A stretch of DNA of 33,405 bases from Nemertoderma westbladi. Its lineage: Eukaryota > Animalia > Xenacoelomorpha. The first letter of the stretch is position 1. The number at the start of each line of letters is the position of its first letter. The notes beneath the pieces are model-generated. The model did no database searches and was not told the origin of the DNA. It was given only the letters and a program-made list of their open reading frames with translations. Below are positions 1 to 27,169 of this stretch, piece after piece. The position numbers and the translations under genes are program-made. The stretch lies in contig JAUCBJ010006072.1 of the NCBI GenBank assembly GCA_032718475.1, positions 1-33,405 on the forward strand. The letters are read 5' to 3'.

Positions 1-2147
1 GTTTCGAGCGCCTCGTGCGCGTTTTGGCCGATGAGTATTTGCACTCCAGGATAATCTGTCTGGAATCGAGGTATCTTAAGATATTGGATGCTCTCATCTT
101 CGTCCCAATTATAAAGGTCTGCTTGAGTAGTAGCAAAGTTCTTTATAGCCACCATTTTTACTGACCTTATACCTTGTGTTCCTAACTTATCCTGGGGGGT
201 GGACAACACACCTACATAGTAATCTGCCGTTAGGGTAGCTTTCCAAACCTGCATAATTCCTGACATATTCAATTTAGTCCGGAACTTGGGTTGTCCAGCA
301 AAGATATCTTCGGCTAGTTCTTGATCGATGAATGTTCCTGTGCTGCCGGAGTCAAGGAGGGCGTTCACTATGTAGCTTTTGTTAAGACCGTGAACTCTTA
401 CTTGAACTACAGGAAATTCTCTGATTCCTACATTGGAAGCTGGAGCTTTCCAAGATGGTTGTTTGGCGAAAGTAGTTGGGGGAAACTCATCGTTGATGTC
501 CTTTTCGTAAGTAAGTGCTCGATACACTGCGGTATTGATTAGATAACAGGATTCGTTGGCGTCGGAGAATTCGTCAGTATAGAATCCTTCCATCTCAGAT
601 TCTTGATCAGTGTCGTTTACATCACTGAATTGGACATGTAGTTCGGGCTCACTTACCTGACTCAGTTTGTCTCGTTCGAACTCACTGTGTAACAAGATGT
701 GATGTTTCGCGCCACACTTTGCACACTTTGCGTCGGAGTAACAGGTTCGCCGTTGGTGTCCGGATCTGAGGCAATTATAGCATAACCGCTTATTCCACAG
801 GACTGTACGTCTGTCTACAAGGGATTTCTTTAGAAATTCAGCACACGCACTCAAACGGTGGGGCCCGTCGCACAGCGCACATTTTGGTTTGATGTTACTC
901 ACCTTAACTTGGTTAACGTTATGCACTCTCGTTCTTTCTTCGGGCTTTCTTCCGTGAATTCTCTTAGGAGACGTAGGAGGAGTTGTTGTTACCTGTTCTC
1001 TCCTGTCACTGGTTCGAGACTTGTATTTACTTACGTCTTTATAGGTCTTGTTGTCATAGTAAGATTTTGCTGTGTCTTTCCCGCTGTCCTCTTCTTGAGA
1101 AGCTTGGCTTTCGCCGTCGTCAGTATAACACACTGGTATTATCCTTCTCCTAGAAACGGGTTTCTCACTTACCTTATTTTCCGATGTTTTCTCTCTGGAC
1201 TGCCTTATGAGTTGTAATTTTACTTCACTATCTAAGAAGGACATGAGATCAGCCATGGTAGGACTTCGTCGTTGTTGTTCATTCATGTACAACACTTTCT
1301 TGTCCCAGCGTGTACATACTCCACCCTTTGGTAAAGTAGAGACTACGGCTCCAATAACCATGGAACTCTGATATTCATGCGACTTACCTAACCAGTCCAG
1401 TTGTCTACAGATCTCTTGAATCTCATCGGAAAACTCTATAATCCCGCTACTAAGGAAGTGTTGGGGGGCTACTAATTTTGCATACAAATACTTAGCTATG
1501 TTATCCTTGTTACCATACCTGATGTTTAATGTATCCCAAACTTGTCTTAATCCATCTGGATGTCCAATAAACTTTAACGCCATTAACTTGGGAGGTCCTT
1601 CCAAGCACTTGATGAGGAATCTAAGTTTCTCTCCGTTAGATAGTACAGAGTTCTGTATGCTATCTTTGTAATATTCGTTGAAAGGTAACCATTTCATCTC
1701 ATCTCCATTGAATTTGACGATCTCTCCCACTTTGACCGCTTGGCGGGCTTCTGTTCTAGCCATCTGACGCGTAAAGCTTTCTTGGGCCATCGTGTTATTT
1801 AATATCGAATTATCGGTATATAAAGTTCTCGGATCATTATCAGGTCTATAGGGAATATCATTAATAACAGGTCTATAATCACCCTTAATAGGGTTTGCTA
1901 TAGGAGTTTCAACTTCACTAGCAGTATAGATGCGTGTAGGCTCCACACCTTGCGCATGTATTACTTCAGACCTAACAGGTTGACACAATGTTACAGGGGG
2001 TATTGGTATGCCGTTTTGTATATTGACTAATTTGTCGCGTTCTAGCGCGATACTTTGCTGCACTTCTTGCAACTCTGCTCTACCTTCCCTCACTGTTCCC
2101 TTAAGTTGGTGGACAGTCTCCTGCATCTGTCCTAGCAGGAGATTCAT
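1..2147 (-). mobile_element. BEL/Pao LTR retrotransposon gag-protease polyprotein segment (continues beyond window start)
   Basis: Hand translation in one frame from ATG 2147 gives a DUF1759-type gag core (KFNGDEMKWLPFNEYYKDSIHNSVLSNGEKLRFLIKCLEG...VWDTLNIRYG, from ~1720). It then gives three BEL-type zinc knuckles (CALCDGPHRLSAC, CYNCLRSGHQRRTC, CKCGAKHHILLH, ~690-880), the protease motif VNALLDSGSTGTFID (~325-368) and ILIGQN near the edge. It is absent from the ORF track, consistent with no stop before the edge. Confidence 0.92.
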
Positions 2148-3747
2148 CCCCCACCGTCCGCTCTTCCACCCACTCAACCGCCGAAGCGGGAGTCGCCAAC
2201 ATAGTAGCGGGCTGACGCGGGACGACGGGAGACAAATTTTTGATTTCTCTCTCTGCTATCTGGACAGGGATATTCTCTTGGACTGTTCCACCGGGTACAG
2301 GCAGTGTAGTACTATGCAAAGGGAATTTAGAGTTAAGCTCTGGAAGTACAGGGGTCTCTAACACAGAAGTGACTTTGGGAACGACAGGCCTAATTATTTC
2401 AGGCTCATCAACTATTGTAGGGAGTCTTGTGACCTGAATAATTTGTTCTGTGGGTTCTATACTACTCAAGTCTGTGCTAGCTAGCTGTCTTCTAACAGCT
2501 GGGGGCAAATCAGGCAATTTGTGACGGTGAGATGTTTTTCTACGCCTGCTTAGACGAGATCTATTTCCTCCGCCTTCAGGATCGGTGGTCTCGCCTTCCT
2601 CCGAGGATGTGTATCCCTGGCGCTTGGGAGTAGATTTTCTCATCATCTGCATTTGATTAGCAGTAAACTGTTTATTTATACTGTCTTGCGTCTCTTGCAG
2701 ATTTTCCAACTCCAGTTGGATAGTCTCCTCAGAAGCTCTCCTTTCTGCTTCCGCCACTGCTGCTTTTCTTTCTGCTTCTGCTTCTGCCGCCTTTCTTTCG
2801 GCTTCTGCTTCTGCCGCCTTTCTTTCGGCTTCTGCTTCTGCCGCCTTTCTTTCGGCTTCTGCTTCTGCCGACTTTCTTTCGGCTTCTGCTTCTGCCGACT
2901 TTCTTTCGGCTTCTGCTTCTGCCGCCTTTCTTTCGGCTTCTGCTTCTGCCGCCGCTGCTGCTGCCACCTTTCTTTTCTCTATCATCCGTTCTTTCTTTAC
3001 TTGTTCTTCTTGGACTCTAACGAGGCGGAGTTTTTCATCACATTCAGCTTGGTTTGCAGCTAACATTTCGGCATCGATTGAGTCCAACACAAGCTTGGTT
3101 CCTTCACTATTAGGGGAAAGTCCAGACAGCCGTCTCCTCAACTCTTCGTCTCCTAGGAATCGCTGATAGTCGGACAAATAAATGTCGATAGCGTCTCTAG
3201 TTCGCGGCTTCTCTGCTGCTGTTAATTCGCTTTCCACTTCGCTTTCCACCTCGCTTTCCACTTCGCTTTCCACCTCACTTTCCACTTCGCTTTCCACCTC
3301 ACTTTCCACTTCGCTTTCCACCTCACTTTCCACTTGAGAAGAAGTGGCGTCGGTTGATTCTTCATAGGTTGGCCGCTCATCATAAACCGTATCCGCCATC
3401 TTCGCTCCGCGTTCTGGCGTCCGCTCAACAGTATCCGAACTACTGGAGCTATCGGGCCGCTGAGAACCAGGTTCTTGGCTAGGAGGTTGCTGCTGTTTTA
3501 TAGCTTCTTCTTGATCCCGCTTGACTTGGGCCCGAGTGCCTATGGCAGACCAACGGCGCTTCACTAACTTCGCAAATTGCGAAATCTTTTCTACCAACCT
3601 AGGTTCTGACACAACCACTGCAGGGGTTGCCCTTCTTACAGTATGAGGGGTTTCAGACCTCGGTCTGGGATTCTCTACACTTTGATCTGAGAAACAGGCT
3701 GTTGTTTCTAGGAGACTATCTGACAGAGTTTGCCTTGTGTCAGCCAT
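2101..3747 (-). CDS. N-terminal low-complexity/coiled-coil ORF of the BEL/Pao element (548 aa), out of frame with downstream gag
   Basis: ORF track; acidic ESEV and AEAEAERK repeats; overlaps the gag-pro frame by 47 nt; same strand and directly upstream of the gag core. Confidence 0.75.
   Translation of the reverse strand: MADTRQTLSDSLLETTACFSDQSVENPRPRSETPHTVRRATPAVVVSEPRLVEKISQFAKLVKRRWSAIGTRAQVKRDQEEAIKQQQPPSQEPGSQRPDSSSSSDTVERTPERGAKMADTVYDERPTYEESTDATSSQVESEVESEVESEVESEVESEVESEVESEVESEVESELTAAEKPRTRDAIDIYLSDYQRFLGDEELRRRLSGLSPNSEGTKLVLDSIDAEMLAANQAECDEKLRLVRVQEEQVKKERMIEKRKVAAAAAAEAEAERKAAEAEAERKSAEAEAERKSAEAEAERKAAEAEAERKAAEAEAERKAAEAEAERKAAVAEAERRASEETIQLELENLQETQDSINKQFTANQMQMMRKSTPKRQGYTSSEEGETTDPEGGGNRSRLSRRRKTSHRHKLPDLPPAVRRQLASTDLSSIEPTEQIIQVTRLPTIVDEPEIIRPVVPKVTSVLETPVLPELNSKFPLHSTTLPVPGGTVQENIPVQIAEREIKNLSPVVPRQPATMLATPASAVEWVEERTVGDESPARTDAGDCPPT
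2736..2951 (-). repeat. Coding 27-bp tandem repeat, (AAEAEAERK) x ~8
   Basis: Unit ttctttcggcttctgcttctgccgcct repeated; visible in translation. Confidence 0.95.
3226..3333 (-). repeat. Coding 12-bp tandem repeat, (ESEV) x 9
   Basis: Unit ttcgctttccac/ctcactttccac; visible in translation. Confidence 0.95.
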
Positions 3748-3884
3748 GTTTGATTGTACAGTTGAATGTCTACTGCTATATTACAGTTAAAGCAAGTCTA
3801 GTAATTCAGTATCACTGTTAGCCTAATAATTAATTACCGATACTGCTACTCAGTGTAGCGTGATATATATATAATATATTAGAA

Positions 3885-7968: not shown

Positions 7969-8339
7969 ACAAGTTTGAAAGCATTTTTACTACATTATTT
8001 ATCGATCAAAATTCGAAATTTACGCACGATTTAGATATATTCTATATCTGCCATGTTGGCATTTTTATGAGAAAGAAGCACGAACTCAGTTTTATCTGGA
8101 TTTAATTTTCATTTAATTACCTGATAAATGTTTGAAATATTTTTAAATTTGTGTATATATTAATGACGGCAGTGTGTGTCAGGTTTAGAGGTATACAAAA
8201 CACAGTTATCAGCGTAGAATACAAATTTACAGTTACCAGACATATGTTTAGGGAAATTGTTCATATATAAACTAAAGATAAGAGGCCCTAGACAGGTTCC
8301 CTGGGAGACACCTTTCTTCATAGCAAATAAGAAAAAATG

Positions 8340-8520
8340 GGAAATATCGTTCTCAGGTATTGGAGGCGTAACTTCTCCCGACTCATTTCCAGTATAGACT
8401 CCCCAGATATAACTGGTGCTCTTTTAAAGACCATGTTTTAAGGACCATGGCTAAACGAAAACTAACCAGGCTCCCATACCGCGTCGAACCCACGCCCTCC
8501 AGAGAGATGTAAGGCAATGG
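8340..8520 (-). mobile_element. Degenerate tRNA-derived SINE remnant
   Basis: ccccagatataactggtgctctttta (~8401) resembles the core of the 27597-27857 SINE; B-box-like gtcgaacc at ~8483. Confidence 0.4.
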
Positions 8521-9072
8521 ATTCAATACAAAAGTTCTAAAATACCATAATCGTAGAAAAACATTGAATTTGCGTGTTTAATTAAAACATGAATCTTAAA
8601 AAATGGCTTTAAATGCATCCATACATTATATGCTATTAGTTTGAACTGTCAAAATGCTATCACAATATTGCAATTTTAGAGTTAAGATATGGAAATACAA
8701 AGTTATAATCACTTCTGCCTTATCCTTCATCAAATTAACCAAGCATAATAACCTCCTCAGCCTGCGGCATAAGTAATTATACAGGTTATATGCTGCTGGA
8801 AGGGCATCTGTGATTATTTTGTTTTATTCGCTTCAGGTTATTATTTCCGTATATTAGCTCTAGAACACTGCAATATTCTATTTATAAAGCGTAGAGAATC
8901 ATATATACATAGAGTAATGAAATATTGGAGACATATTTTAGACAGCGCACTACAATTACTCAACAATAAAATTACGGTAGACCTATAGTATATAATTTCG
9001 AATGTACTGATCCATTGTCATATTTACAGTAACTGCAGGAGTAAGCTCTCTCTCCTGTGAATACCATTGTGT

Positions 9073-9093
9073 TTATAAGATGGCACAACATCT
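9073..9093 (-). other. C-terminal CaaX box (R-C-C-A-I-L-stop)
   Basis: CAIL fits the CaaL geranylgeranyltransferase-I consensus; the adjacent Cys is a candidate palmitoylation site; basic RKASR precedes it. Confidence 0.8.
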
Positions 9094-12000
9094 ACTTGCT
9101 TTCCGAAATGCGATTCCTTCAGCTTGAGCTTCGCCATAGCCAAATATTGCTTCATTCTGAAGATCTATTTGATCGGATAGTTGCATCATACTCTTTTTGT
9201 CAAAACATCCTAGTTCATCAGTTTCTAGATGCATTTTAATGTTTTGAACGAGCTGAGTAACTCTCACATCATTGTCTAAGTTATTATGTTTATTATAGTT
9301 ACCATGGCTTCCATGAGTTGTAAATGAGTTACAAAACTCCATAAAGACGGTACCGGAGAATGGTATAGCCAATTCTCCTTTAGGGGGCCAACCAGCATTA
9401 CTGCAACAGGTCTTCTGACTCTCAAATAATAATGGCATTATTTTCTTTTTTCTTTCAAAAGCCAATTGGCCTTCAGTAACACAATATCTCGATGTTAGAT
9501 ATCCTTTACTAATACAAGGTATGAACACTTTACAATTTGAGATACCTTCATCGATTCGTCCAAACAGCTTATCTCCACCTCCCATCTGCCCAATGTCCAT
9601 CCAACAAGTAATACCTTGTTTCTCCAACTGTTCTTTCAGCTGTTTTACATTTTCTTGAATCTTCCAATTATAACTTAAAAATATCTCCTTGGTACTATCT
9701 CTAGTTTTGATTTTCCTCTCCTGTGGTTCAGATGGTATTGGACGTTCCTGCGGTACCCATTGCCTAAATTTATGAGTACTCACACGGTTATGTCCACATA
9801 ACATAACCTTCTTTTCTAATGATTCTTCCATGTCTAAGAAATGAATACATTCCATTTCAGGGCAGTGTTCTACTTTGTGGAATTCACACTCGGTTTCACA
9901 AGGACATGCAACAGCTGTCATGTATGATATATTTTTAACCCATAGATGCTTGAAATCATTTAGAGTTGACTCTATAAAGTGTCTTACAGCAGCAAAAGCT
10001 TCAGGTTTTGGAGTCTTTCCTTTATTTACAGATATTTCTCCATCATCGCTTATGACACTAACTCGAACTATACTAACCTTGATTCTAGCCAGTCGAATAG
10101 GTGCCATTTCAAGAATACAATCATGTTCATCATCTATATAAAACCGAACTACTCTGTGATATAGTTTTGGTTCAGAGCTGCCTTGATCTTGGGACCATTT
10201 AACAGCCCTCACTGACAATCTATTAAATAAACCATCCGGGAGGAATCCATCAAATATTATGTGGAAAATAATATCACTTTCGGAGTGAGGAATAAAAATC
10301 TTTTTGTTTGGAACTTTCATCCTGGCTGGAATGTAAAATGATCTGTATGGTAAAATACTTTTTTGTTTCGGTGGCAATTTCTCACACATTAGATCAAACT
10401 TTTCCATCAATGCAATTAAAGTTGATTTTTGTGAGATTATGGAGTTCCACATATGATCCAGTAATGGTTCATCTAGAATACCATTATCGTCTAGATTCTC
10501 CCAATATGGTCTCAGTGCTACCCACTCATTGTCGATATCAGCTATCGTTATGATCTTTTTAAACACATCTATCAGCCACTGTGGATTGAGTATTACAGTA
10601 TTTCTCAAACTGTCATCAGTTGCACCCAAACCTCCATAATAAATTATGGTTCCCAAATCATGGTAAAAATTCAGCATTGTCAAGAATGTAGTATCTGATG
10701 TAATTCCAACTTTGTTTGCAATATCACGGACTTTATCAATATTCGCAAAATTTTGATAATGTATTTTCTGTATGGCATTTTCAAATTTTAACCAAAGCAG
10801 GGGCATTAACTCTCCCATGTACTGCTGCTGTTTGGATATATCCTGAATATGTTGTCTAAGTTTGATAACTTCTTGGTCTGATCCATTTTCTATGTGATTC
10901 TCCACTGCATAACACTCATTCACAAGATGCATTGCATATGACTTCCTCGCAATCATTTCTTTAATTAATTTGAACTTCTGTCTTGCCATTTTATTTTGCT
11001 CCTCCGGGCTAGAATGCAAACTAGCTCTATGAGTTCCTACAATGAATATTGGAGGTGTTTCAACATATTTATCCTTACCAATACATTTCCGTTGTTTTCC
11101 AGTCTGCTTTGAAGTGAAAGCATAAATTGATTTCATCCAAAAGTCGATAAAATCAATATTTCGCATCTCATGATGCACAAATTGACTATCTGGATCATCA
11201 TCAGTGCCACAAGGTCCTCTTCGTTGAAGTGTTTGAGCTGGGGCTTCTAGGTCATCCGTTAGATTGAACACTATCACATACACTGCCCTGTATGTTAGGA
11301 AAACCTGGTGTGTTGCATAATACACTGATTGCCCAGCAAAGTCCCAAATACTTAGTGTAATTTTATCACTTTCTTCAGCCATTTCTGTATAAATATCGCT
11401 TTGTTGTTCCTGATCTAACATCTCAATCAGTAACTCTTTCACCCTGTCAGGTATATCAACACGACTGTCATATATATCTTCCTCTTTCACCTGACTTTCG
11501 ACCAATAATCTACTAATTTGTTGTGTAGATACTGGCCCATCATCTATTGCAATTGAAGATTCGCTTTCGCTTGATTGGATGTGTTCTTTTTCATGATTAT
11601 CTCCATACTGTATATCTTGATTTTCATCATTTTGTAAGCTACTTTTTGCATCTTCATTTATACTTGCTGAGGCAGTTTTCGAAACTCTACTTACTTTACT
11701 TAAAAATTCTTGTTTCTTTTTAATAATTTCCTTTGCAACTAAATATGCCAATCTTCTATTATACTCATCCTCTAGATTTGTTGTTTTATTATCTGCCTCC
11801 TTGGTGTTGTTTGATTGCCATGGCTGCCAGTCACTGACATCTATTTCGCAGTTATCATTTACAGTTATTCCATCTGTTGAAATCTCATTTGGATTAAACT
11901 TTTCACCCATTAGAGAATTCTTCAAACTTGTCTTGCCAGCCCTATCCTGTCCGACAAGCATTAGACGTGTTCTAAATATTGGTTTAGTTCCATTATTCAA

Positions 12001-15000
12001 TGCCAGTTTAAAAGCATTGATAGCATCTGGACCCCTTGCTAAGATTTCGGCCGGCAACTCATCTTTTACATTCGATTTGAGTCGCCCTTCTGCAGCTAAT
12101 AATGATTCAGTCATGTTTTTAAACATTTCTTGTATATTTATGTTACTTTTTGCACTTGTTTCCAAGTATTTCATGTTAAACTTTTTTGCCATTTTCATTC
12201 CAGAGTTTGTAGAAATTTTACGGGTATTTTTGAGATCGCATTTATTTGCAATCAGAAATAATTTTACATGCGGATTTATATGTGGTTGTATGTCATCAAA
12301 CCATTTAGTGACACTGTCAAATGTTTCTCCTTGTGTGACATCATACACAATAAATATACCATTAGCACTTCTATAGTAGGATGCTGACAAAGCTCTGTAC
12401 CTCTCAGCCCCAGCAGTATCCCATATCTGAAGTTTGGTAGTACATCCATTTATATCTAAGACTTTAGCCTTTAATTCTATACCAATTGTTGATTTATATT
12501 CATCCACAAATTCGTCAGTAATAAACTGATGCAATAAACTACTCTTTCCACTCTCTGAATTTCCAACAAGAACAAGTTTTAAAATTGTATTGATAACTTC
12601 TACAGGATAAAATACTTCGACAGATTTCCCATCGTCATGATCTCTTGATAACCATCTATTAACCTCGAAAGTAACATTAGTATTCCTATAAATGTCTCGT
12701 ATGTTTACGGCTTGTAAGTACCACGATTTAGCTTTTATGCCGTTGTATTCATTTGTTACTATTACATTAAGTATTTCCTCTCCTAGATCGATTGATTGTA
12801 TGTTGAATGTCTGCTTGCTTCCTTTACTGAATGTCTGTTGTAGTTGAAATCGCCCTGACATTGCCTTGCTTCCCATTATTTCAAACCAAACAGTCGAATC
12901 TGTTCCAGCATTTTGTATACTCCCTGTTTCAACCTGGATTGCATATGGAATTGTATGCTCTGCTGCTTCTAGAATACTTTCAATTTTGTCGGCAATCCCT
13001 TTGACGCCATTTTCCCAGCTGTCGATTAGTTTATCAGTTAACGTCAGTGTTGCTGATTGCCTGCCAAGAAGGAGTTCACCTATCCAATCTGGCTGCTTAT
13101 AGGCATCAATTGGTATCGATTTATCCTGTACAGAGTGCTGAATCATGGCATGCAGAGCAATAACATAATTACCTGTTTGTAAAGCAAATTTTGTAAATAT
13201 TTCACACCAATTTATGAGGGTTGATTTTATTTGATTATTTGCGAGGTTTATTCCTTTTCCATATGATTTATTGTTATTTGGTGTGATCATAACTATTACA
13301 GGTTGGCAGATTTTCCCCACTTTGTGACCCATCCATTTCATCATCCAGTCGCCCATCAATTTATATTCCTCACTTTTTTTATCAATATTAACATCAGATG
13401 CCAGAATTGCTATGGATATTCCATATTTCTCTAGACTTTTTCCTAATTTGTTGACAATTGCAGCATCTTTTGTGCTGCATATTACATTGACACTCTTGTT
13501 CATTTTGTTTAGAGTAACTTCTTTATCTTTGGTTGGATTTGTCCTTCTGATATTTTCAACTATTTGTTTACTATCTGTCGTTTTTTGTAATAATGATAAA
13601 ATGGATGATTTTTTTGGCTCGTCTGCAGTTAAAGATCCAGCAAACTCTGGGAACTGATGTCCTAATTCCACCTCATTGAATTCTTCATTTAAACTCTCAT
13701 TTTGACTTTCAGCTTCATATTCGGCTGTTTTCTCAACACTAAAATCACTAATATTGTCATCGAAGCTTGCCCCTCTAAAATACCTAGGCATTCTTTCAAT
13801 TTGATCTCCAAACTTTTTTCTTTTATTAATTTTAGTTTCATTGTTTAGTTTTCTGAAATCTTCTTTTGAATGATTGTGTCTAGTTTGTAGTCCCACACCA
13901 ATGTTTCTGATTCCTTTACGGTCAGTATCAATGTTTCTATCTATACTGTCGATGCTTACATCACTAACATTATCATCAAAGCTTCCTCGTCTGTAGTATT
14001 GCCTGGCCTTAGCTGCTTCATGGTCATTTGATTCTTTCTTCCTATATGCCTTAATTTCGTCAATAAATGGCTGTCTCTCCTTTCGGATGGTTTCACGTTT
14101 TACCCTTTCTTCGTTTCTGTTTCTTTCTGTTCTTAGGATTTCTGCCTGCCTTTCCCTTTCCTCTATAAATCTATAATCACTGACAGGCGGACGATACGTC
14201 ACTTCTTGTTTACCTTTATTTCTTCTATGAGCTTTAGATCCGTCACCTTCTGTTTCTATTGTGTTTATTTTATCTTTAAATAAACTCTCACTCTGGTTGA
14301 TTTCAATATCTTCATTGTCCATTCCTTCATGTGTCCTTTTATGGTCCATATTGTATTGCTTTGAAATTGATGCTTGAGTGGCAACGTTCTCACTGATTTC
14401 ACTTTTATTTCCCCCAGCCATTCCTTTTCCGTTAGCTTGTTTGATTGGATTTAGTAGCTGAGGGAATGGGTCAGGTGTCTCATCTATCTTTGAATGTCCG
14501 ACCCACTCGCCATTTTCCACTTCCCATTCTATTGGTCCTGATGAAAATGAATATGACGTTTTAGACTGTTGATGTTTTGGTTGTGATGCTGAATCTGCAG
14601 CTGAAGATTCAGTTTGGTATGATCCAACATGGGCCGAATAAGTTTGGTGTGAACCAACATGGGCTGGTTGAGCTTGCTGAGAACCAACATGGGCTGATTG
14701 AGTTTGGTGTGAACCAACATGGGCTGGTTGAGTTTGCTGTGAACCAACATGGGCTGGTTGAGCTTGCTGAGAACCAACATGGGCTGATTGAGTTTGGTGT
14801 GAACCAACATGGGCTGGTTGAGTTTGCTGTGAACCAACATGGGCTGATTGAGTTTGGTGTGAACCAACATGGGCTGGTTGAGTTTGCTGTGAACCAACAT
14901 AGGCTGATTGAGTTTGCTGTGAACCAACATGGGCTGATTGAGTTTGCTGTGAACCAACATGGGCTGATTGAGTTTGCTGGGCATAGGGAGCATTCTCAGA

Positions 15001-15072
15001 AACAATTTCAAAGGACTTTTTTGATTTTTTAGATTTTGTCTTGCCCTTTTTGAGTTGTTCTGTTAATCCCAT
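9073..15072 (-). CDS. Single-exon 1999-aa Roco-family protein: TIR-like / PLAT / Rab / Roc / COR / TIR / CaaX
   Basis: Uninterrupted 6-kb ORF with an in-frame TAA two codons upstream of the ATG. Two sets of small-GTPase motifs, COR signatures (MGELMPLLWLKFE, LNFYHDLGTIIYY, LNPQWLIDVFKKII, LPDGLFNRL), a TIR, and C-terminal RCCAIL. A possible AATAAA lies at 8823-8828 on the minus strand. Confidence 0.95.
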   Translation of the reverse strand: MGLTEQLKKGKTKSKKSKKSFEIVSENAPYAQQTQSAHVGSQQTQSAHVGSQQTQSAYVGSQQTQPAHVGSHQTQSAHVGSQQTQPAHVGSHQTQSAHVGSQQAQPAHVGSQQTQPAHVGSHQTQSAHVGSQQAQPAHVGSHQTYSAHVGSYQTESSAADSASQPKHQQSKTSYSFSSGPIEWEVENGEWVGHSKIDETPDPFPQLLNPIKQANGKGMAGGNKSEISENVATQASISKQYNMDHKRTHEGMDNEDIEINQSESLFKDKINTIETEGDGSKAHRRNKGKQEVTYRPPVSDYRFIEERERQAEILRTERNRNEERVKRETIRKERQPFIDEIKAYRKKESNDHEAAKARQYYRRGSFDDNVSDVSIDSIDRNIDTDRKGIRNIGVGLQTRHNHSKEDFRKLNNETKINKRKKFGDQIERMPRYFRGASFDDNISDFSVEKTAEYEAESQNESLNEEFNEVELGHQFPEFAGSLTADEPKKSSILSLLQKTTDSKQIVENIRRTNPTKDKEVTLNKMNKSVNVICSTKDAAIVNKLGKSLEKYGISIAILASDVNIDKKSEEYKLMGDWMMKWMGHKVGKICQPVIVMITPNNNKSYGKGINLANNQIKSTLINWCEIFTKFALQTGNYVIALHAMIQHSVQDKSIPIDAYKQPDWIGELLLGRQSATLTLTDKLIDSWENGVKGIADKIESILEAAEHTIPYAIQVETGSIQNAGTDSTVWFEIMGSKAMSGRFQLQQTFSKGSKQTFNIQSIDLGEEILNVIVTNEYNGIKAKSWYLQAVNIRDIYRNTNVTFEVNRWLSRDHDDGKSVEVFYPVEVINTILKLVLVGNSESGKSSLLHQFITDEFVDEYKSTIGIELKAKVLDINGCTTKLQIWDTAGAERYRALSASYYRSANGIFIVYDVTQGETFDSVTKWFDDIQPHINPHVKLFLIANKCDLKNTRKISTNSGMKMAKKFNMKYLETSAKSNINIQEMFKNMTESLLAAEGRLKSNVKDELPAEILARGPDAINAFKLALNNGTKPIFRTRLMLVGQDRAGKTSLKNSLMGEKFNPNEISTDGITVNDNCEIDVSDWQPWQSNNTKEADNKTTNLEDEYNRRLAYLVAKEIIKKKQEFLSKVSRVSKTASASINEDAKSSLQNDENQDIQYGDNHEKEHIQSSESESSIAIDDGPVSTQQISRLLVESQVKEEDIYDSRVDIPDRVKELLIEMLDQEQQSDIYTEMAEESDKITLSIWDFAGQSVYYATHQVFLTYRAVYVIVFNLTDDLEAPAQTLQRRGPCGTDDDPDSQFVHHEMRNIDFIDFWMKSIYAFTSKQTGKQRKCIGKDKYVETPPIFIVGTHRASLHSSPEEQNKMARQKFKLIKEMIARKSYAMHLVNECYAVENHIENGSDQEVIKLRQHIQDISKQQQYMGELMPLLWLKFENAIQKIHYQNFANIDKVRDIANKVGITSDTTFLTMLNFYHDLGTIIYYGGLGATDDSLRNTVILNPQWLIDVFKKIITIADIDNEWVALRPYWENLDDNGILDEPLLDHMWNSIISQKSTLIALMEKFDLMCEKLPPKQKSILPYRSFYIPARMKVPNKKIFIPHSESDIIFHIIFDGFLPDGLFNRLSVRAVKWSQDQGSSEPKLYHRVVRFYIDDEHDCILEMAPIRLARIKVSIVRVSVISDDGEISVNKGKTPKPEAFAAVRHFIESTLNDFKHLWVKNISYMTAVACPCETECEFHKVEHCPEMECIHFLDMEESLEKKVMLCGHNRVSTHKFRQWVPQERPIPSEPQERKIKTRDSTKEIFLSYNWKIQENVKQLKEQLEKQGITCWMDIGQMGGGDKLFGRIDEGISNCKVFIPCISKGYLTSRYCVTEGQLAFERKKKIMPLLFESQKTCCSNAGWPPKGELAIPFSGTVFMEFCNSFTTHGSHGNYNKHNNLDNDVRVTQLVQNIKMHLETDELGCFDKKSMMQLSDQIDLQNEAIFGYGEAQAEGIAFRKASRCCAIL
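9230..9687 (-). other. C-terminal TIR domain (TIR_2-like), from aa ~1796
   Basis: EIFLSYNW...VKQLKEQLEKQGITCWMDIGQMGGGDKLFGRIDEGISNCKVFIPCISKGYLTSRYCVTEGQLAFERKKKIMPL; Glu1867 at 9472-9474. End boundary approximate. Confidence 0.92.
9900..10818 (-). other. COR (C-terminal of Roc) domain
   Basis: MGELMPLLWLKFE start, FYHDLGTIIY, VILNPQWLIDVF, FYIPARM, FLPDGLFNRL; directly follows Roc. Confidence 0.88.
10830..11975 (-). other. Roc GTPase domain with a long insertion between switch I and G3
   Basis: RLMLVGQDRAGKTSL (P-loop 11926-11952), ISTDGI, IWDFAGQSVYYATHQVFLT (W at 11344-11346), IFIVGTHRA, YAVEN. Confidence 0.92.
12097..12582 (-). other. Embedded Rab-family GTPase domain (Rab1/Rab8-like motifs), aa ~831-992
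   Basis: GNSESGKS, YKSTIGIEL (RabF1-like), KLQIW (RabF2) DTAGAE, RYRALS (RabF3-like), YYRSA (RabF4-like), IVYDVT (RabF5), NKCD, ETSAK. Confidence 0.95.
12604..12945 (-). other. PLAT/LH2 domain, aa ~710-823
   Basis: YAIQVETGSIQNAGTDSTVWFEIMG...FSKGSKQTF...DLGE...WYLQAVNIRD...FEVNRWLSRDHDDG matches the PLAT pattern. Confidence 0.92.
12970..13494 (-). other. Degenerate TIR-like domain, aa ~527-701
   Basis: SVNVICSTKDAAIVNKLGKSLEKYGISIAI aligns by eye to TIR betaA-alphaA-betaB; CQPVIVMITPNNNKS to betaC; NWCEIFTKFALQTGNYVIAL to the WCxxE helix and betaD; PDWIGELLLGR and WENGVKGIADKI to the C-terminal part. Confidence 0.65.
14621..14980 (-). repeat. Coding 30-bp minisatellite x 12 (QQTQSAHVGS-type decapeptide)
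   Basis: gaaccaacatgggctgattgagtttgctgt-type units at exact 30-bp spacing, unit starts 14621 to 14951. Confidence 0.97.
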
Positions 15073-18030: not shown

Positions 18031-18960
18031 TTATCTGTATGTATATCCACTACCAATAGTATAAATTACATGAATTACTTTTGAAATTTGGTTGGCAAGG
18101 CGCTCTTGATTTGTGTAAATGAAGGCCTCAGGTAATCTCCGTAACTGTTCATAAGATTTCTCCCCCATCAGTTGAATTATCCGAAGATTTCTGCGAGGTT
18201 TCGGGCATTCCATGACTGATCTGCGTTCTTCCTTATCAATCACACCCTTTTCCTGGAGTTGATAAAGTAAAACGCGATTGGTAATCATTTTATCTAGTAA
18301 CACGGGTCTTAGAACTGTAAGTATCTTAACTGGGAAGCTCATTGACTCTGGTGCGTATCGAATAACATGTCTGATACGGATCTCGATATCGTCGACAGAC
18401 GGCATCAATTGCATCAACCAACTACTCGGATCTGGTTCCACTCTTTCGGGTGGTAGCCCGGTGGATGGTTGCTCTACCAACTGTGGTAGCCCGGTGGTGG
18501 ATGGTCCCCCTACCAACTGTGGTAGCACGGTGAAGTTCTTCCCTAGTGGGTGATCTCCTCCATTCCTGTTCGGATCATTTACAAGAATACAATTCAATTG
18601 AGTTCGGTCTATGTCGATTTGGTTGAGTGCATCACAGAATTTAACAACACCGTTATCGTTATTAAACTCAATGTAGTAACTAAAGGAGTACGTATTTTCT
18701 ATTTTTACACAAAAAGGGAAGCCCATAAATTCATCCTCACCTGTGATTATTGAAGTAATGGTTTCAGACTCCGGAAAGAATTCCACAATGGTTCCTTTAT
18801 TTGTCGTTTTCATTTGATTCCAACATAGCGACATTCGACTTTTGATGTTTCCGCCTTCAAAAGTAATCCTCAATGGCTGATCAATATCGATAACTACCTT
18901 TAACAAATCATTTAGAGCTACAATACATTTCGCTGTATCCGAAAGGGTATGGGAGGCCAT
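18031..18960 (-). CDS. Intronless 309-aa protein with C-terminal CARD (death fold) and unassigned N-terminal globular domain
   Basis: ATG at 18960 in a strong Kozak context (aacaccATGG); the track's TTG start is unlikely. KILTVLRPVLLDKM...LLYQLQEKGVIDKEERRSV...RNLRIIQLMGEKSYEQLRRLPEAFIYTNQERLANQI (~18085-18327) follows the CARD helix pattern. Pro-rich duplicated linker at ~18450-18530. Confidence 0.78.
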   Translation of the reverse strand: MASHTLSDTAKCIVALNDLLKVVIDIDQPLRITFEGGNIKSRMSLCWNQMKTTNKGTIVEFFPESETITSIITGEDEFMGFPFCVKIENTYSFSYYIEFNNDNGVVKFCDALNQIDIDRTQLNCILVNDPNRNGGDHPLGKNFTVLPQLVGGPSTTGLPQLVEQPSTGLPPERVEPDPSSWLMQLMPSVDDIEIRIRHVIRYAPESMSFPVKILTVLRPVLLDKMITNRVLLYQLQEKGVIDKEERRSVMECPKPRRNLRIIQLMGEKSYEQLRRLPEAFIYTNQERLANQISKVIHVIYTIGSGYTYR

Positions 18961-19200
18961 GGTGTTGATAAGGTCCAAATGAATTACAATAACTCAAAAC
19001 TAACTTCAGTAACCAACGGCACCTTCATTTAAAATGTTACTTATATTTAATTTTTAGTGGTCTAAAATGTAAAATGTTTCTAATTATTCAAATATAATTA
19101 TTATCACAATTAATATAAGGGTAAAACTAACAAGCTATCAACAATCAATAATTACAAAACATTCTAGAACAATTGCATCTAAATTTCCATGTTCATGTTA

Positions 19201-20459: not shown

Positions 20460-21290
20460 ATTCAATGACACAATGTGATGAAAAAATTTTAGGGGGTAAA
20501 CACTAAAATGACTACAATTATTTGATAGCAGGCCAGGGCTCCAAAACATAATCGATTGTTGATTTACCACAAGGTCTATTAATTGCATTATCAAAATAGG
20601 TAAATTGACCTATTTTACTATCAGCACCTACTCTTCCGTTAAAAATACGGAGATTTGTACAAATACACATTTCTATGATATGAGGTGTTTGCCAAATTTA
20701 TTAACTTTTTTTATCGCTATTTAATCTGGTGGGTATTGAATCCGTAAGTAATAATTCATGACCCTGGTCTGGTAACAAGTTATCTAATGATTGGCATGTA
20801 GGACTATTGATGACAAAATCATTGGTGATTCCTGTCCTGGAATTAAAATCCCCGATAATTAATATTTCCGATTCCTGCCCAACTAGAGCTATACCGTCTT
20901 CCACTCTGTTAAACATATTTATACTATCGCCCTCATGATTTGTAAAACCTTCTGGAGCTATATACACCCCGCTTATTATGATGCTCTTTTCTAGATTGGA
21001 GTCATCCGTATAGCGAAGCCATAATATATCATCGTGTTGCAATTCTTTTATTTTTTCCATCTTCGAATCAAGTTCGTTTTATATATATATTTTGACCTCC
21101 AGGCCTTTGAGTTTTTATATTTTCGAGGGATACTGTATGAAAAATACCCGGGTATTTCTAGGTTATATACGTTGTTTGGACTTTCCCAAGTTTCAGTATA
21201 AATGAATATATCAGAGTTCGTAACTAGTTCAGTGAAGTCAGGATCTAGAGCAACTTTTAATCCTTCAACATTTAACGATCCGAAACGTAT
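20460..21290 (-). pseudogene. Decayed non-LTR retrotransposon (LINE, CR1/L2-group-like) apurinic-type endonuclease domain
   Basis: Across frames: IRFGSLNVEGL, DIFIYTETW, IPGY, GVYIAP, ILIIGDFNSRTG, NLRIFNGR, GQFTY, GKSTIDYVL, FSSHCV; several frameshifts and stops; no RT domain seen. Confidence 0.9.
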
Positions 21291-21419
21291 TGTGGTGGGA
21301 GAAGCTGTAGTCTGTTGTTTTGGATTATTAACTATGTACCCTGTTTCCGTAGGGAGTTCCCGGGAGGAAAACCGTGTCGCCTTCCCCTGGGCTAATATTG
21401 ACAGAAGTTGTCCCAGATG

Positions 21420-22900
21420 AGGTCTCCCATGAGATGTAAACTCTCTTAGGTCTCCCACGAGATGTACACTCTCTTAGGTCTCCCACGAGATGTACACTCT
21501 CTCAGGTCTCAAACGAGATGTACACTCTCTCAGGTCTCCCACGAGATGTACACTCTCTCAGGTCTCCCACAAGATGTACACTCTCTCAGTTCTCCACAAG
21601 ATGTACACTCTCTTAGGTCTCCCCGAGATGTACACTCTCTCAGGTCTCCCACGAGATGTACACTCTCTCAGGTCTCCCCGAGATGTACACTCTCTTAGGT
21701 CTCCCACGAGATGTACACTCTCTCAGGTCTCAAACGAGATGTACACTCTCTCAGGTCTCCCACGAGATGTACACTCTCTCAGGTCTCCCGAGATGTGCAT
21801 TCTCTTAGGTCTCCCACGAGATGTACACTCTCTCAGGTCTCAAGCGAGATGTACACTCTCTCAGGTCTCCCACGAGATGTACACTCTCTCAGGTCTCCCG
21901 GGAGATGTACACTCTCTCAGTTCTCCACAAGATGTACACTCTCTCAGGTCTCCCACGAGATGTAAACTCTCTTAGGTCTCCCACGAGATGTACACTCTCT
22001 CAGGTCTCCCACGAGATGTACACTCTCTCAGGTCTCCTAGAGATGTACACTCTCTCAGGTCTCCCCGAGATGAACACTCTCTCAGGTCTCCCCGAGATGT
22101 AAACTCTCTCAGGTCTCCAAAGAGATGTACACTCTCTCAGGTCTCCCACGAGATGTACACTCTCTCAGGTCTCCCCGAGATGTAAACTCTCTCAGGTCTC
22201 CCACGAGATGTACACTCTCTCAGGTCTCCCACGAGATGTACACTCTCTCAGGACTCTCACGTGATGTAAACTCTCTCAGGTCTCCCACGAGATGTAAACT
22301 CTCTTAGGTCTCCCACGAGATGTACACTCTCTCAGGTCTCCCCGAGATGTACACTCTCTTAGGTCTCCCACGAGATGTACACTCTCTCAGGTCTCCCCGA
22401 GATGTACGCTCTCTCAGGTCTCCCACGAGATGTACACTCTCTCAGGTCTCCCCGAGATGTACACTCTCTCAGGTCTCCCACGAGATGTACAATCTCTCAG
22501 GCCTACCACGAGATGTAAACTCTCTCAGGTCTCCCACGAGATGTACACTCTCTCAGGTCTCCCCGAGATGTACACTCTCTCAGGTGTCCCCGAGATGTAA
22601 ACTCTCTCAGGTCTCCCCGAGATGTAAACTCTCTCAGGTCTCCCACGAGATGTACACTCTCTCAGGTCTCCCACGAGATGTACACTCTCTCAGGTCTCCC
22701 ACAAGATGTAAACTCTCTCAGGTCTTCAACGAGATGTACACTCTCTCAGGTCTCCCACGTGATGTAGATTCTCAGGTCTCCCACGAGATGTACACTCTCT
22801 CTGGTCTCCCATGAGATGTACACTCTCTCAGGTCTCCCACGAGATGTAAACTCTCTCAGGTCTCCCACGAGATGTACACGAGATTCTCAGGTCTCTCAAG
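21420..22900. repeat. 28-bp (27-bp variants) tandem array, about 53 units
   Basis: Consensus gagatgtacactctctcaggtctcccac; no unique spacers. Confidence 0.97.
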
Positions 22901-23118: not shown

Positions 23119-24322
23119 ATTATTGTTTTTCTAGTGCAAAAAACTATAAAATGATCGATTAGGTTAATTAAAGTTTAGACGTGTAAAATATATTATATAA
23201 AATATAACTGTTCGAATGTCCTTTTGTGTGGAGATCCACCAGAGTGTTTTTTATTTTTTGAGAATCGAAAAAATACTATCACCGGTAAAATAAATCGAGA
23301 AGGTCCCGTTTCAAAACAACAAACCAAATTTTACGACATAGGTGACAATTGTGGCGGCCTTGTAACCAAAACAATAAACTAAAAGAAGACATTGCAATTC
23401 CATATACTTCGGATGTAATTTTTATGGGTGAAATTTTTATTTTAACATTATTGGATTATCTTCTTCTGAAACAGCACAAGTAAAGTGGAGAAGCGTGGAG
23501 CTCATATTTGGGACATTTTAAGAAGAATGTGGAAGGCAGATTCGAGCCCTGACACAAAGGTGATCTAAATGTAGAATATTGTATAAAAATTAGTTCTCAG
23601 CTAAGGTTGATCAGAGAATAACAATAATGCTGGGTGAACTGGTTATAGTTTGTAAAATATTCACTTTAAAAGGCGACCCAAACACCACAAATTAAGGGGA
23701 ATTTATATGAAGTTAATTTGAATGGTTGCTACCATCAGAACTGAAACAACCGCCCCAATGGGGTGATCCGCCAAACTAGACGTCGTTGCCTCAACCGTTG
23801 TTGCTGGTGGCTCAATTCCTTCTTGCAAACGTCTTCATTGGCAATAGGCACGCACTCACCCAGCATCTTTCTCTCCTGCTGTACAACAAAGCTTTGGCGG
23901 ACACGCTGTTAATATGCATTATTCCTGGTAATTGCAGGAATAGCAGCTTGCAGGCGGAACAATCCGTTTGAATTTCACCTGGGTGTTCCTCGTACCAATC
24001 CGAATCCGGGAACACATCGGGGCGGGCTGACTTGTAAGTAACCATTGTGTGTTTGTCATTGCAAGCAACCGCTAACACATTGTCAAAATTATCTGTAACT
24101 ATAGAAACCGCAATCAATAGCATTTTCGCCAACTTGACATCCATGTTACATGTGGACCCAAATTTCAAAATGTCGATAATCAGTATAGGCCTATAGCCTT
24201 CAGTTTACCTTATTTGTATATTATTGTTTTAATACCCTATTTACATAGAAATGGTTGACGCGGTGCAACCATATAGGTCTATATTAGTTTCGGAACGTGA
24301 TTTTAATCATTTCTACTTTATC
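23119..24322. repeat. Local segmental duplication copy A (partner 25755-27169)
   Basis: Near-identical from attattgtttttcta to ttctactttatc, apart from a 214-bp deletion and small indels. Confidence 0.96.
23703..24144 (-). pseudogene. Disrupted paralog of the Ly6/uPAR-like gene
   Basis: Same N-terminus as 26335-26991; 1-bp loss in a C run (cacccagc vs caccccagc, ~23860) and a 214-bp deletion at ~23813; premature stop at 23812. Confidence 0.88.
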
Positions 24323-24974: not shown

Positions 24975-25196
24975 TTACAGAAATTTATCTGAAATCAGCT
25001 GTCTTCCTCTGTCCGAATGTATAGATCTACATGGCCCAAACAAGTTGAACAATAATATGGTTAAGCACCTTTCCATAGTTACCATTGTCATGTCTGGAAC
25101 AGCAAAAGCAAAGGGAAACCTGGAGTATTCATCTACACAAACAAATAAATATTTATTTCGTGTTGCTGATGGTAAGGGACCCTTGAAGTCAATCGA
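24975..25196 (-). mobile_element. Ty3/Gypsy-type integrase core fragment
   Basis: SIDFKGPLPSATRNKYLFVCVDEYSRFPFAF...LFNLFGPCRSIHSDRGRQLIS contains the first two Asp motifs of a DDE integrase; followed by stops. Confidence 0.88.
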
Positions 25197-25207
25197 TTTT
25201 TTTTTTT

Positions 25208-25267
25208 TAATTGCTGACCACCTTACACGGAGCAACTTTTTTTGAAAAACTATTTATTATTTCTTAA
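25208..25267. repeat. Truncated third copy of the ~370-bp module (preceded by poly-T)
   Basis: taattgctgaccaccttacacggagcaacttttttt gaaaaactatttattatttcttaa. Confidence 0.9.
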
Positions 25268-25754: not shown

Positions 25755-27169
25755 ATTATTGTTTTTCTATTGCAAAAAAACTATAAAATGATCGATTAGA
25801 TTAATTAAAGTTTAGACGGGTAAAATATATTATATATAACTGTTCGAATGTCCTTTTGTGTGGAGATCCACCAGAGTGTTTTTTATTTTTTGAGAATCGA
25901 AAAAATACTATCACCGGTAAAATAATTCGAGAAGGTCCCGTTTCAAAACAACAAACCAAATTTTACGACATTGGTGACAGTTGTGGCGGCCTTGTAACCA
26001 AAACAATAAACTAAAAGAAGTCATTGCAATTCAATATACTTCGGATGTAATTTTTATGGGTGAAATTTTTATTTTAACATTATTTGATTATCTTCTTCTG
26101 AAACAGCACAAGTAAAGTGGAGAAGCGTGGAGCTCATATTTGGGACCTTTTAAGAAGAATGTGGAAGGCAGATTCGAGCCCTGACATAAAGGTGATCTAA
26201 ATGTAGAATATTGTATAAAAATTAGTTCTCAGCTAAGGTTGATCAGAGAATAACAATAATGCTGGGTGAACTGGTTATAGTTTGTAAAATATTCACTTTA
26301 AAAGGCGACCCAAACACCACAAATTAATGGGAATTTATATGAAGTTAATTTGAATGGTTGCTACCATCAGAACTGAAACAACCGCCCCAATGGGGTGATC
26401 CGCCAAACTAGACGTCGTTGCCTCAACCGTTGTTGCTGGTGGCTCTGTCTCTGTGGTAACCGAAACTGTTGTTGTGGCAACCGGATCAAACAAGGGATCG
26501 CTCCAATCCACAGTTCCATTGGGGTACAGGTAGTCGTGTTCCCACACCAAGTCTCCTACTTTGCTGCAGACTTCTGTTCCGTTGCAACACACAGACTGGC
26601 AACTTGGATGTGACAGATCAGCAGAGAAAGCTTCTCCATCTATGCGAAAGTTATCGCTCAATTCCTTCTTGCAAACGTCTTCATTGGCAATAGGCACGCA
26701 CTCACCCCAGCATCTTTCTCTCCTGCTGTACAACAAAGCTTTGGCGGACACGCTGTTAATATGCATTATTCCTGGTAATTGCAGGAATAGCAGCTTGCAG
26801 GCGGAACAATCCGTTTGAATTTCACCTGGGTGTTCCTCGTACCAATCCGAATCCGGGAACACATCGGGGCGGGCTGACTTGTAAGTAACCATTGTGTGTT
26901 TGTCATTGCAAGCAACCGCTAACACATTGTCGAAATTATCTGTAACTATAGAAACCGCAATCAATAGCATTTTCGCCAACTTGACATCCATGTTACATGT
27001 GGACCCAAATTTCAAAATGTCGATAATCAGTATAGGCCTATAGCCTTCAGTTTACCTTATTTGTATATTATTGTTTTAATACCCTATTTACATAGAAATG
27101 GTTGACGCGGTGCAACCATATAGGTCTATATTAGTTTCGGAACGTGATTTTAATCATTTCTACTTTATC
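25755..27169. repeat. Local segmental duplication copy B (intact)
   Basis: Partner of 23119-24322. Confidence 0.96.
26335..26991 (-). CDS. Intronless 218-aa secreted 10-Cys Ly6/uPAR (three-finger)-like protein with Thr-rich stalk and probable GPI signal
   Basis: ATG 26991 (gtaacATGG); hydrophobic N-terminus MDVKLAKMLLIAVSIV; 10 Cys ending CQSVCCNGTEVC; two NGT sequons; TTTVSVTTETEPPATTVEATTSS stalk; hydrophobic tail IGAVVSVLMVATIQINFI with no cytoplasmic part. Confidence 0.7.
   Translation of the reverse strand: MDVKLAKMLLIAVSIVTDNFDNVLAVACNDKHTMVTYKSARPDVFPDSDWYEEHPGEIQTDCSACKLLFLQLPGIMHINSVSAKALLYSRRERCWGECVPIANEDVCKKELSDNFRIDGEAFSADLSHPSCQSVCCNGTEVCSKVGDLVWEHDYLYPNGTVDWSDPLFDPVATTTVSVTTETEPPATTVEATTSSLADHPIGAVVSVLMVATIQINFI

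Follow-up and report, generated by a model that had tools for sequence, protein, structure and literature searches.

In the current work a stretch of genomic DNA of 33,405 nucleotides from Nemertoderma westbladi (contig JAUCBJ010006072.1 of assembly GCA_032718475.1; this whole stretch is hereafter named the window) was analysed, which carries at positions 9073-15072 of the minus strand a single intron-free open reading frame (ORF) of 1999 codons, running from ATG to TAA and specifying a Rab-containing Roco-TIR protein. The gene is genuine, exists in duplicate and is under constraint, and represents a variant within a known Roco-TIR family. Judged by sequence comparison, most of its architecture is inherited, the Roc-COR-TIR-CaaX portion being derived from an invertebrate family with the domain order Neuralized-Roc-COR-Death-TIR (hereafter, the Neuralized family). 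What is new here is the placement of a Rab1/8-type domain and a PLAT domain in the input slot of such a protein, combined with the loss of the switch-II Gln and of the tail of this Rab, and with the loss of the Death domain.

Domain assignment was performed with Pfam, which listed 18 families at E<=0.1 for the protein of 1999 amino acids (aa). In agreement with the original prediction for this DNA, PLAT, Rab, Roc, COR, TIR and a CaaX box are found in one chain. The PLAT/LH2 domain (aa 710-826; 12595-12945) is represented by a PF01477 match above cut-off at aa 710-817 (E 8e-12), and the Rab G-domain (aa 830-992; 12097-12585) by a Ras match at aa 832-991 (in two stretches, with an E of 2e-63 over the whole protein). 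These are followed by the Roc domain (aa 1004-1415; 10828-12063), detected by Pfam and delimited by family alignment so as to include the long insertion typical of the family, by COR-A (aa 1424-1575; 10348-10803; PF16095, E 4e-18) and by COR-B (aa 1601-1779; 9736-10272), whose PF25497 match at aa 1601-1737 is weak (19 bits against a cut-off of 27) and which aligns to the family throughout. The TIR domain (aa 1797-1950; 9223-9684) was recognized through TIR_2 (PF13676, aa 1797-1886, E 8e-22), and the chain ends in CCAIL (9076-9090), a predicted CaaL prenylation box with an adjacent Cys. The two small-GTPase domains are indeed distinct and arranged back to back at a distance of ~45 aa, as the chain has one P-loop at aa 837 and another at aa 1041, each accompanied by a separate set of G2-G4 motifs, the Rab fold ending at ~aa 992 and strand 1 of Roc starting from ~aa 1035; the motif that marks the start of Roc is located ~12 aa from the Rab end. 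The predicted lack of leucine-rich repeats (LRR), ankyrin (ANK) repeats and kinase also holds for the 18 Pfam families listed, and the combination of an LRRK1/2-type kinase with LRR, ANK or armadillo (ARM) repeats is not found among these families.

The possibility of a chimeric assembly, raised together with the original prediction, was addressed in DNA sequencing data. The sequence is present in four DNA runs (X1 to X4) from three studies, where X1 and X2 represent one sample, which is a possible source of the window, and X3 belongs to a different study (P2); all 30 depth bins over 9040-14520 are covered in X1, X2 and X3. No RNA run was among those listed, which speaks neither for nor against expression. 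One contig of 2787 nt encompasses positions 11726-14512 (aa 187 to the G2 motif of Roc), thereby crossing PLAT-Rab-Roc, and shows no difference from the window in X3 and X2 and a single one in X1. At lower stringency, a second contig of 2394 nt was obtained in X1, X2 and X3, with fragments also in X4, which follows the window collinearly across PLAT-Rab-Roc, its length differing by a net 0, 6 and 3 nt. A junction contig identical to the window in X3, together with a second gene copy of the same domain order and frame, thus speaks against a chimera.

This second version, which is represented by a separate 5' contig and by COR-TIR contigs aligned to window positions 9070-14502, has an overall divergence of ~9-25% and retains domain order and frame. 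It differs from the window at 80 of 446 nt (18%) over PLAT and the start of the Rab, at 72 of 287 nt (25%) within the Rab and at 32 of 331 nt at the start of Roc; diverged versions cover Roc-COR at 9-10% and match the window up to the stop codon, after which the likeness ends. Since all three samples carry both versions, the second version is most likely a paralogue. An allelic origin was judged unlikely, considering this co-occurrence and the distance of 18-25% over PLAT-Rab. Sequencing depths for the second copy and the window copy were 27.9 and 146.6 in X1, 33.5 and 30.8 in X2, and 23.6 and 48.8 in X3, the ratio being different between X1 and X2 although these derive from the same sample. 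Constraint is visible in the conserved Roc core, where nine of ten changed codons are synonymous, and 24 of the 41 differences examined at codon level fall in third positions.

The origin of the C-terminal half of the protein is indicated by its homologues, as 25 of 41 matches are Roc-COR-Death-TIR proteins (35-44% identity), 22 of these 25 possessing an N-terminal Neuralized domain; these top 25 homologues originate from echinoderms, hemichordates, lancelets, molluscs, annelids and nemerteans. The alignment between the window protein and this family extends from aa 1004 to the C-terminus and is interrupted by a clean gap of ~100 aa at the Death domain, in place of which the window specifies a short linker (9685-9735). 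The Roc G motifs (GQDRAGKT, STDGI, WDFAGQ and VGTHRAS) agree with the family columns, COR follows immediately after Roc in a continuous alignment, 65 of the 72 columns invariant among 28 Roc-COR relatives are retained, and TIR and a CaaL tail are located at the C-terminus as in the family. Pfam yielded no Neuralized match in the window protein, where the Rab sits at that position, and no Death domain lies between COR and TIR, which makes the protein a derivative and not a full member of the family. Compared with individual members, such as the Saccoglossus protein named 'neuralized PATS1' (P0003) and an Amphiura protein (P0002), Roc-COR identity reaches 46-47% and the long Roc insertion, the type of TIR domain (WMDIGQMGGGD in all 13 aligned rows) and a CaaL tail with two Cys are shared, whereas the window protein contains ~1000 aa with PLAT and Rab instead of Neuralized, no Death domain and no introns. 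Glu1867 of the TIR domain (9472-9474), the predicted catalytic residue, corresponds to the conserved Glu in helix C and is retained in all 13 aligned rows; a residue of this kind serves catalysis in TIR domains.

A double-Cys CaaL/CaaX tail was observed in 23 of 25 members (P0002-P0026); it goes unmentioned in the accessible portions of the published descriptions of the family that were examined. The prenylation box of the window protein is therefore inherited and is not the Rab's own, and the proposal that the membrane anchor was that of the Rab, brought in cis, was rejected in favour of an ancestral Roco-family tail, the CaaX box being accompanied by a second nearby Cys in these members. In a quick tree calculated under the C20 model the window protein groups with the family (99 in the Shimodaira-Hasegawa-like approximate likelihood ratio test, SH-aLRT), and the closest rows to it are family members both in this tree and in a more careful one calculated under LG+G4, in which the protein itself stands in an open fork.

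The position at which the N-terminal half was joined corresponds to a junction that is also used by relatives. Family alignments begin at a P-x-E-I-x-A-R-G motif even among relatives with different N-termini, an intron acceptor is located just upstream of this Roc-start motif in the relative L026, and the junction occupied by the Rab in the window is taken up in Amphiura paralogues by RIG-I helicase or Death-TIR-Macro modules. The relative L023 is divided into 17 exon-like segments across Roc-COR-Death-TIR, its Death domain being specified by two phase-1 exons. The simplest course of events would start with a swap of the N-terminal module at the Roc-start junction, followed by retroposition or intron loss and then by duplication; intron loss through retroposition is likely, and a general, lineage-wide loss of introns may be the alternative. 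Related Roc-COR proteins of Amphiura filiformis (P0027, P0028, P0029 and P0035), some of which may be gene-model joins, combine this chassis with immune-type modules, the observed arrangements being CARD-RIG-I helicase-C-terminal domain (CTD)-Roc-COR-Death, three Death domains followed by TIR-Macro-Roc-COR, Roc-COR-Schlafen AlbA, and CARD-FN3-Roc-COR-TIR. Death-TIR-TIR arrangements in one frame, akin to the C-terminal half of the family, were observed in L004 (1580-2872), L005 (947-2242) and L006 (9698-10900).

The Rab domain is assigned to the Rab1/8/10/Sec4 group, as its best matches in the Protein Data Bank (PDB) are Sec4, Rab10, Rab1a and Rab8A, nearly tied at 151-155 bits, and the best 60 matches are all Rab/Ypt/Sec4 proteins. 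It is 40-45% identical to 32 aligned Rabs, contains the G1, G2, G4 and G5 motifs and retains 19 of the 21 columns that are invariant in these 32 proteins, the exceptions being the start Met and the switch-II Gln. The latter, present in 32 of 32 relatives, is replaced by Ala889 (12406-12408; DTAGAE versus DTAGQE), which represents the sole internal change among the invariant columns. Effector-facing columns are altered (Phe42, Ile70 and Thr71 in A3 numbering), and the domain has neither a hypervariable tail nor a di-Cys prenylation motif of its own, as it passes through a Cys-free linker into Roc. The Rab is under constraint and probably binds nucleotide; that it cycles like a normal Rab is unlikely, because both the tail and the switch-II Gln of a free Rab are lost. 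That the Gln-to-Ala change locks the Rab in its active form was rejected as a firm claim. Q67A is reported to render Rab35 inactive, not dominant active, TBC-type GTPase-activating proteins (GAPs) provide their own Gln, and Q67A in Rab35 and Rab1 lowers activation by DENND1 and DrrA and leaves activation of Rab1 by TRAPP intact (PMC3919270). Two to six small-GTPase domains, in some cases accompanied by a DUF294 nucleotidyltransferase, OTU or ankyrin domain, were observed in the proteins P0062, P0190, P0116 and P0118; tandem small GTPases per se are therefore common.

With respect to known systems, the original prediction had anticipated that pairings of these domains may already be catalogued, and this is the case. 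In Trichoplax, no fewer than three proteins have been described in which a Ras-like domain lies N-terminal of Roc, and a mechanism has been proposed for them (PMC4104024), and Roc-COR has been found together with TIR in an Aplysia MyD88-like protein with a ROCO domain (PMC9334734), in anemones as well as, combined with Neuralized, in oyster and centipede (PMC5094078), in a red alga (PMC11378527) and among bacterial conflict systems, where Roc-COR (AP-GTPase) proteins occur with TIR effectors (PMC8195603). The full PLAT-Rab-Roc-COR-TIR architecture was not found among the matches listed, that is, in 9 matches from 7992 scored candidates, in the best 150 of 74,144 matches or in 64 metagenome loci; these lists are dominated by multi-PLAT and multi-Rab proteins and the Trichoplax proteins are not visible in them, so that absence is not proven. 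Neither PLAT with Rab nor a separate Rab with Roc-COR was present in any of 199 fetched proteins, and no description of the full architecture was found in the literature searched (largely non-subscription). In five proteins both Rab and Roc matches were obtained; these were interpreted as a single domain matched twice, the ranges overlapping in four and the fifth fitting P0037. Trichoplax adhaerens TRIADDRAFT_62404, 62498 and 57945 likewise contain two GTPases per chain with the small GTPase ahead of Roc-COR; in the available part of their description (PMC4104024), by which they were compared, PLAT and CaaX are not mentioned and the class of the small GTPase is not stated. The Trichoplax and window fusions are likely independent, because the Roc-COR of the window appears closest to the bilaterian Neuralized family. 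LRRK2 and Dictyostelium Roco2 share with the window protein the Roc-COR core and a functional tie to Rab1/8/10-group GTPases at membranes, and are unlike it in their kinase output, their N-terminal repeat domains and their use of separate prenylated Rabs; LRRK-like matches align with the window protein at just 22-23%.

The reading that we favour, with about even confidence, is that the protein is a duplicated intronless offshoot of the Neuralized family, the N-terminal module of which has been exchanged for PLAT and for a Rab that lacks the tail and carries the Gln-to-Ala change, and that it would function as a membrane-anchored innate-immune switch with TIR as output. The CaaL box would be geranylgeranylated and the adjacent Cys acylated, and together with PLAT these would hold the protein at a membrane. 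The Rab would bind nucleotide yet be largely uncoupled from the GDP dissociation inhibitor (GDI) cycle and from Gln-dependent exchange factors, and would serve as a standing binding surface, either a compartment tether or a sensor, in the slot that is filled by sensing modules in relatives. Engagement at the Rab would shift the monomer-dimer balance of Roc-COR, the association state of Roco proteins having been proposed to be nucleotide-dependent (PMC6337361), and the clustered TIR domains, having lost the adaptor Death domain, would signal through cleavage of NAD+ to cyclic ADP-ribose (cADPR) or as a scaffold. Animal TIR proteins other than Toll-like receptors produce cADPR in a Glu-dependent manner, and Roc and COR are named among the drawn domains in a figure legend of the same source (10.64898/2026.04.20.719644). 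Of the self-contained membrane or immune switch originally proposed, the anchored Roc-COR switch with TIR output is thus kept by inference, from the retained Glu and the immune modules of relatives, whereas CaaX as an anchor of the Rab in cis and a normal Rab input are not.

The boldest form of this immune-switch reading, which we regard as unlikely, is that of an integrated Rab decoy, where the Rab1/8-like domain would be exposed on a membrane as bait for Rab-hijacking microbial proteins, attack would lead to dimerisation of Roc-COR and production of cADPR by TIR, and the two gene copies would represent baits of different specificity. It is considered because it would fit the module's position and uncoupling as well as the higher rate at which Rab and PLAT diverge. 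Integrated-decoy receptors, as described for nucleotide-binding leucine-rich repeat receptors with integrated domains in plants (NLR-IDs; PMC4759884) and for NLRP1B (PMC13037943), resemble this layout in joining a host-target-like domain, a nucleotide switch and a TIR output; the likeness is conceptual, as the switch of the window protein is Roc-COR and not a STAND (signal transduction ATPases with numerous domains) NTPase.

Several observations weigh against the favoured reading or parts of it. In the LG+G4 tree (27 rows, obtained by dropping nine, of which four were long-branch and five close relatives, and adding L001), the window protein is placed in an open fork nearest to an Amphiura member, with no starred clade including it, outside the lophotrochozoan clade and two echinoderm paralogue clades and on a long branch of 0.97; from this position the host would probably be an invertebrate close to the deuterostomes. 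The codon tally is based on a selection, made by the tool, of 41 differences out of at least 371; over all codons examined, 17 changes are synonymous and 20 non-synonymous, the ratio being 2:12 within the variable Roc insert and 6:7 where PLAT borders on the Rab. The greater divergence of Rab (25%) and PLAT (18%) relative to Roc-COR (9-10%) could reflect relaxed selection or gene conversion of Roc-COR, either of which would also account for it. Ala889 was read in the window copy only, and a Gln-to-Ala change, by analogy with the Q67A data, would not by itself fix the nucleotide state (PMC3919270). The immune role is assigned by association, and no functional study of the Neuralized family was found in the literature searched.

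To these points the N-terminal domain at aa ~520-705 (12958-13515) has to be added, an alpha/beta domain that had been called 'TIR-like' and which is left without a family assignment and unproven as TIR. Pfam provided no TIR match for it, a hidden Markov model (HMM) of 39 TIR sequences scored it at 0.1 bits while 500 shuffled sequences reached 7.6, and hhalign returned a probability of 0.9%; homologues of this domain were found neither in 984 candidates (proteins <1099 aa) nor in the 199 fetched proteins. Besides strands and helices that alternate in a model of low confidence, the sole support is an ESM Atlas lead of 0.87 to TIR clusters, below the bar of 0.9. AlphaFold modelled aa 521-709 at a predicted local distance difference test (pLDDT) score of 38.6, and aa 515-1001 without an alignment at 36.2; a fold search with the former model listed helical bundles only (best Z 5.7) and no TIR, the model being too poor to inform. 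The earlier name could not be confirmed. N-terminal to this domain, the protein starts with a Lys-rich segment (aa 1-31; 14980-15072; 35% charged), followed by a tandem repeat of 30 nt in 12.5 copies (14606-14979), specifying 10-aa units rich in Gln, Ser and His, and by a charged, likely disordered stretch (aa 156-515; 13528-14607; 35% charged and 27% hydrophobic residues), which is shorter in the second gene copy, where only short pieces can be aligned.

Among the alternatives, the one that survives best, and which still appears unlikely, assigns the Rab to the output, Roc-COR being a nucleotide-dependent dimerisation device and the Rab recruiting effectors of the Rab1/8 type, by which a membrane compartment would be moved or remodelled, with TIR in a secondary role. 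This corresponds to the model of Civiero et al. for the Trichoplax Ras-like plus Roc proteins (PMC4104024), is consistent with the retention of G1, G2, G4, G5 and most Rab-family columns, and PLAT and CaaX are compatible with trafficking. A working Rab1, however, has 76% identity between its human and Dictyostelium forms (PMC3128523), compared with 40-45% between the window Rab and its nearest relatives; the Rab moreover differs by 25% in DNA between the two copies, its effector-facing columns are changed and the TIR domain is well conserved. Quite unlikely is a passenger fusion, in which a retrocopy captured, or landed in, PLAT-Rab sequence, Roc-COR-TIR continuing to work as in the parent and the Rab decaying. 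The absence of introns, compared with the 17 exon-like segments of L023, the retroelement remains nearby, the long branch, the missing invariant Gln and an N-terminal half that diverges faster would all suit such an origin, but the retention of 19 of 21 invariant Rab columns at 40-45% identity is not expected from drift, and the frame is preserved between copies that are 18-25% apart over PLAT-Rab.

Very doubtful is an LRRK2-like activation in cis, where the GTP-loaded Rab would dock on its own chain and activate Roc-COR, in the way in which LRRK2 and Roco2 are activated by free Rabs. Rab1A-GTP binds and activates Dictyostelium Roco2, whose basal activity is increased by Q67L (PMC3128523), and the Rab of the window belongs to the Rab1/8 group and lies ~12 aa ahead of the Roc-start motif. 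Rabs recruit LRRK2 through its N-terminal repeat domains (PMC6337361), however, and these are not in the window protein, so that the docking site on which the earlier analogy with LRRK2 relied is absent; in addition, the short linker limits docking, and there is no kinase. An assembly chimera or chance ORF has a negligible probability, for while no listed contig covers the whole gene and the best-matching sample may be the source of the window, the novel junctions are bridged by a single contig without differences in a second study (X3), the same junctions occur in the diverged second copy and the remaining domains follow the family order.

The gene, known from one species and with both pairwise combinations already published, represents a naturally occurring and maintained joining of the two classes of GTPase which, in the case of LRRK2 and Roco2, act together in trans. 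Whether a small GTPase operates upstream or downstream of Roc-COR was asked for the Trichoplax proteins in 2014 and could be tested here within a single chain. The gene also points to a widespread, predicted prenylated Roc-COR-TIR family with an N-terminal slot in which Neuralized, RIG-I, Macro, FN3-CARD and Rab modules are exchanged. Should the Rab be a decoy, integrated-decoy immunity would be extended to GTPase-switched animal receptors.

The remainder of the window contains, all on the minus strand, retroelement sequences and several further ORFs. At 3-3780, two ORFs of 559 and at least 751 codons overlap in different frames; the longer one has matches to DUF1759 (E 4e-12) as well as to a zinc knuckle and an aspartyl protease, which indicate the gag-protease portion of a long terminal repeat (LTR) retroelement, presumably of the BEL/Pao type, that is cut by the window edge. 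Fragments of reverse transcriptase, of a long interspersed nuclear element (LINE)-type endonuclease (weak) and of integrase are located at 8160-8423, 20701-21473 and 24975-25253. A single ORF of 315 aa at 18031-18978 has weak C-terminal CARD/Death matches (E 0.13-0.16), and in the Atlas a sponge cluster (0.88) and UPA-FIIND+CARD proteins (0.81-0.83) came up as leads; situated 3 kb upstream of the Roco-TIR gene on the same strand, it is a possible CARD8/NLRP1-like neighbour and is offered as a lead only. A duplicated Cys-rich ORF with a signal-like start, without a Pfam match in either copy, is found at 26335-27015 and 23812-24168; the copy of 226 aa ends in a Thr-rich stalk and a hydrophobic tail, resembling by eye a glycosylphosphatidylinositol (GPI) anchor signal, and the second copy runs out of frame after ~100 aa. 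Positions 21420-22879 are occupied by a 28-bp tandem repeat of ~53 copies with 91% matches.

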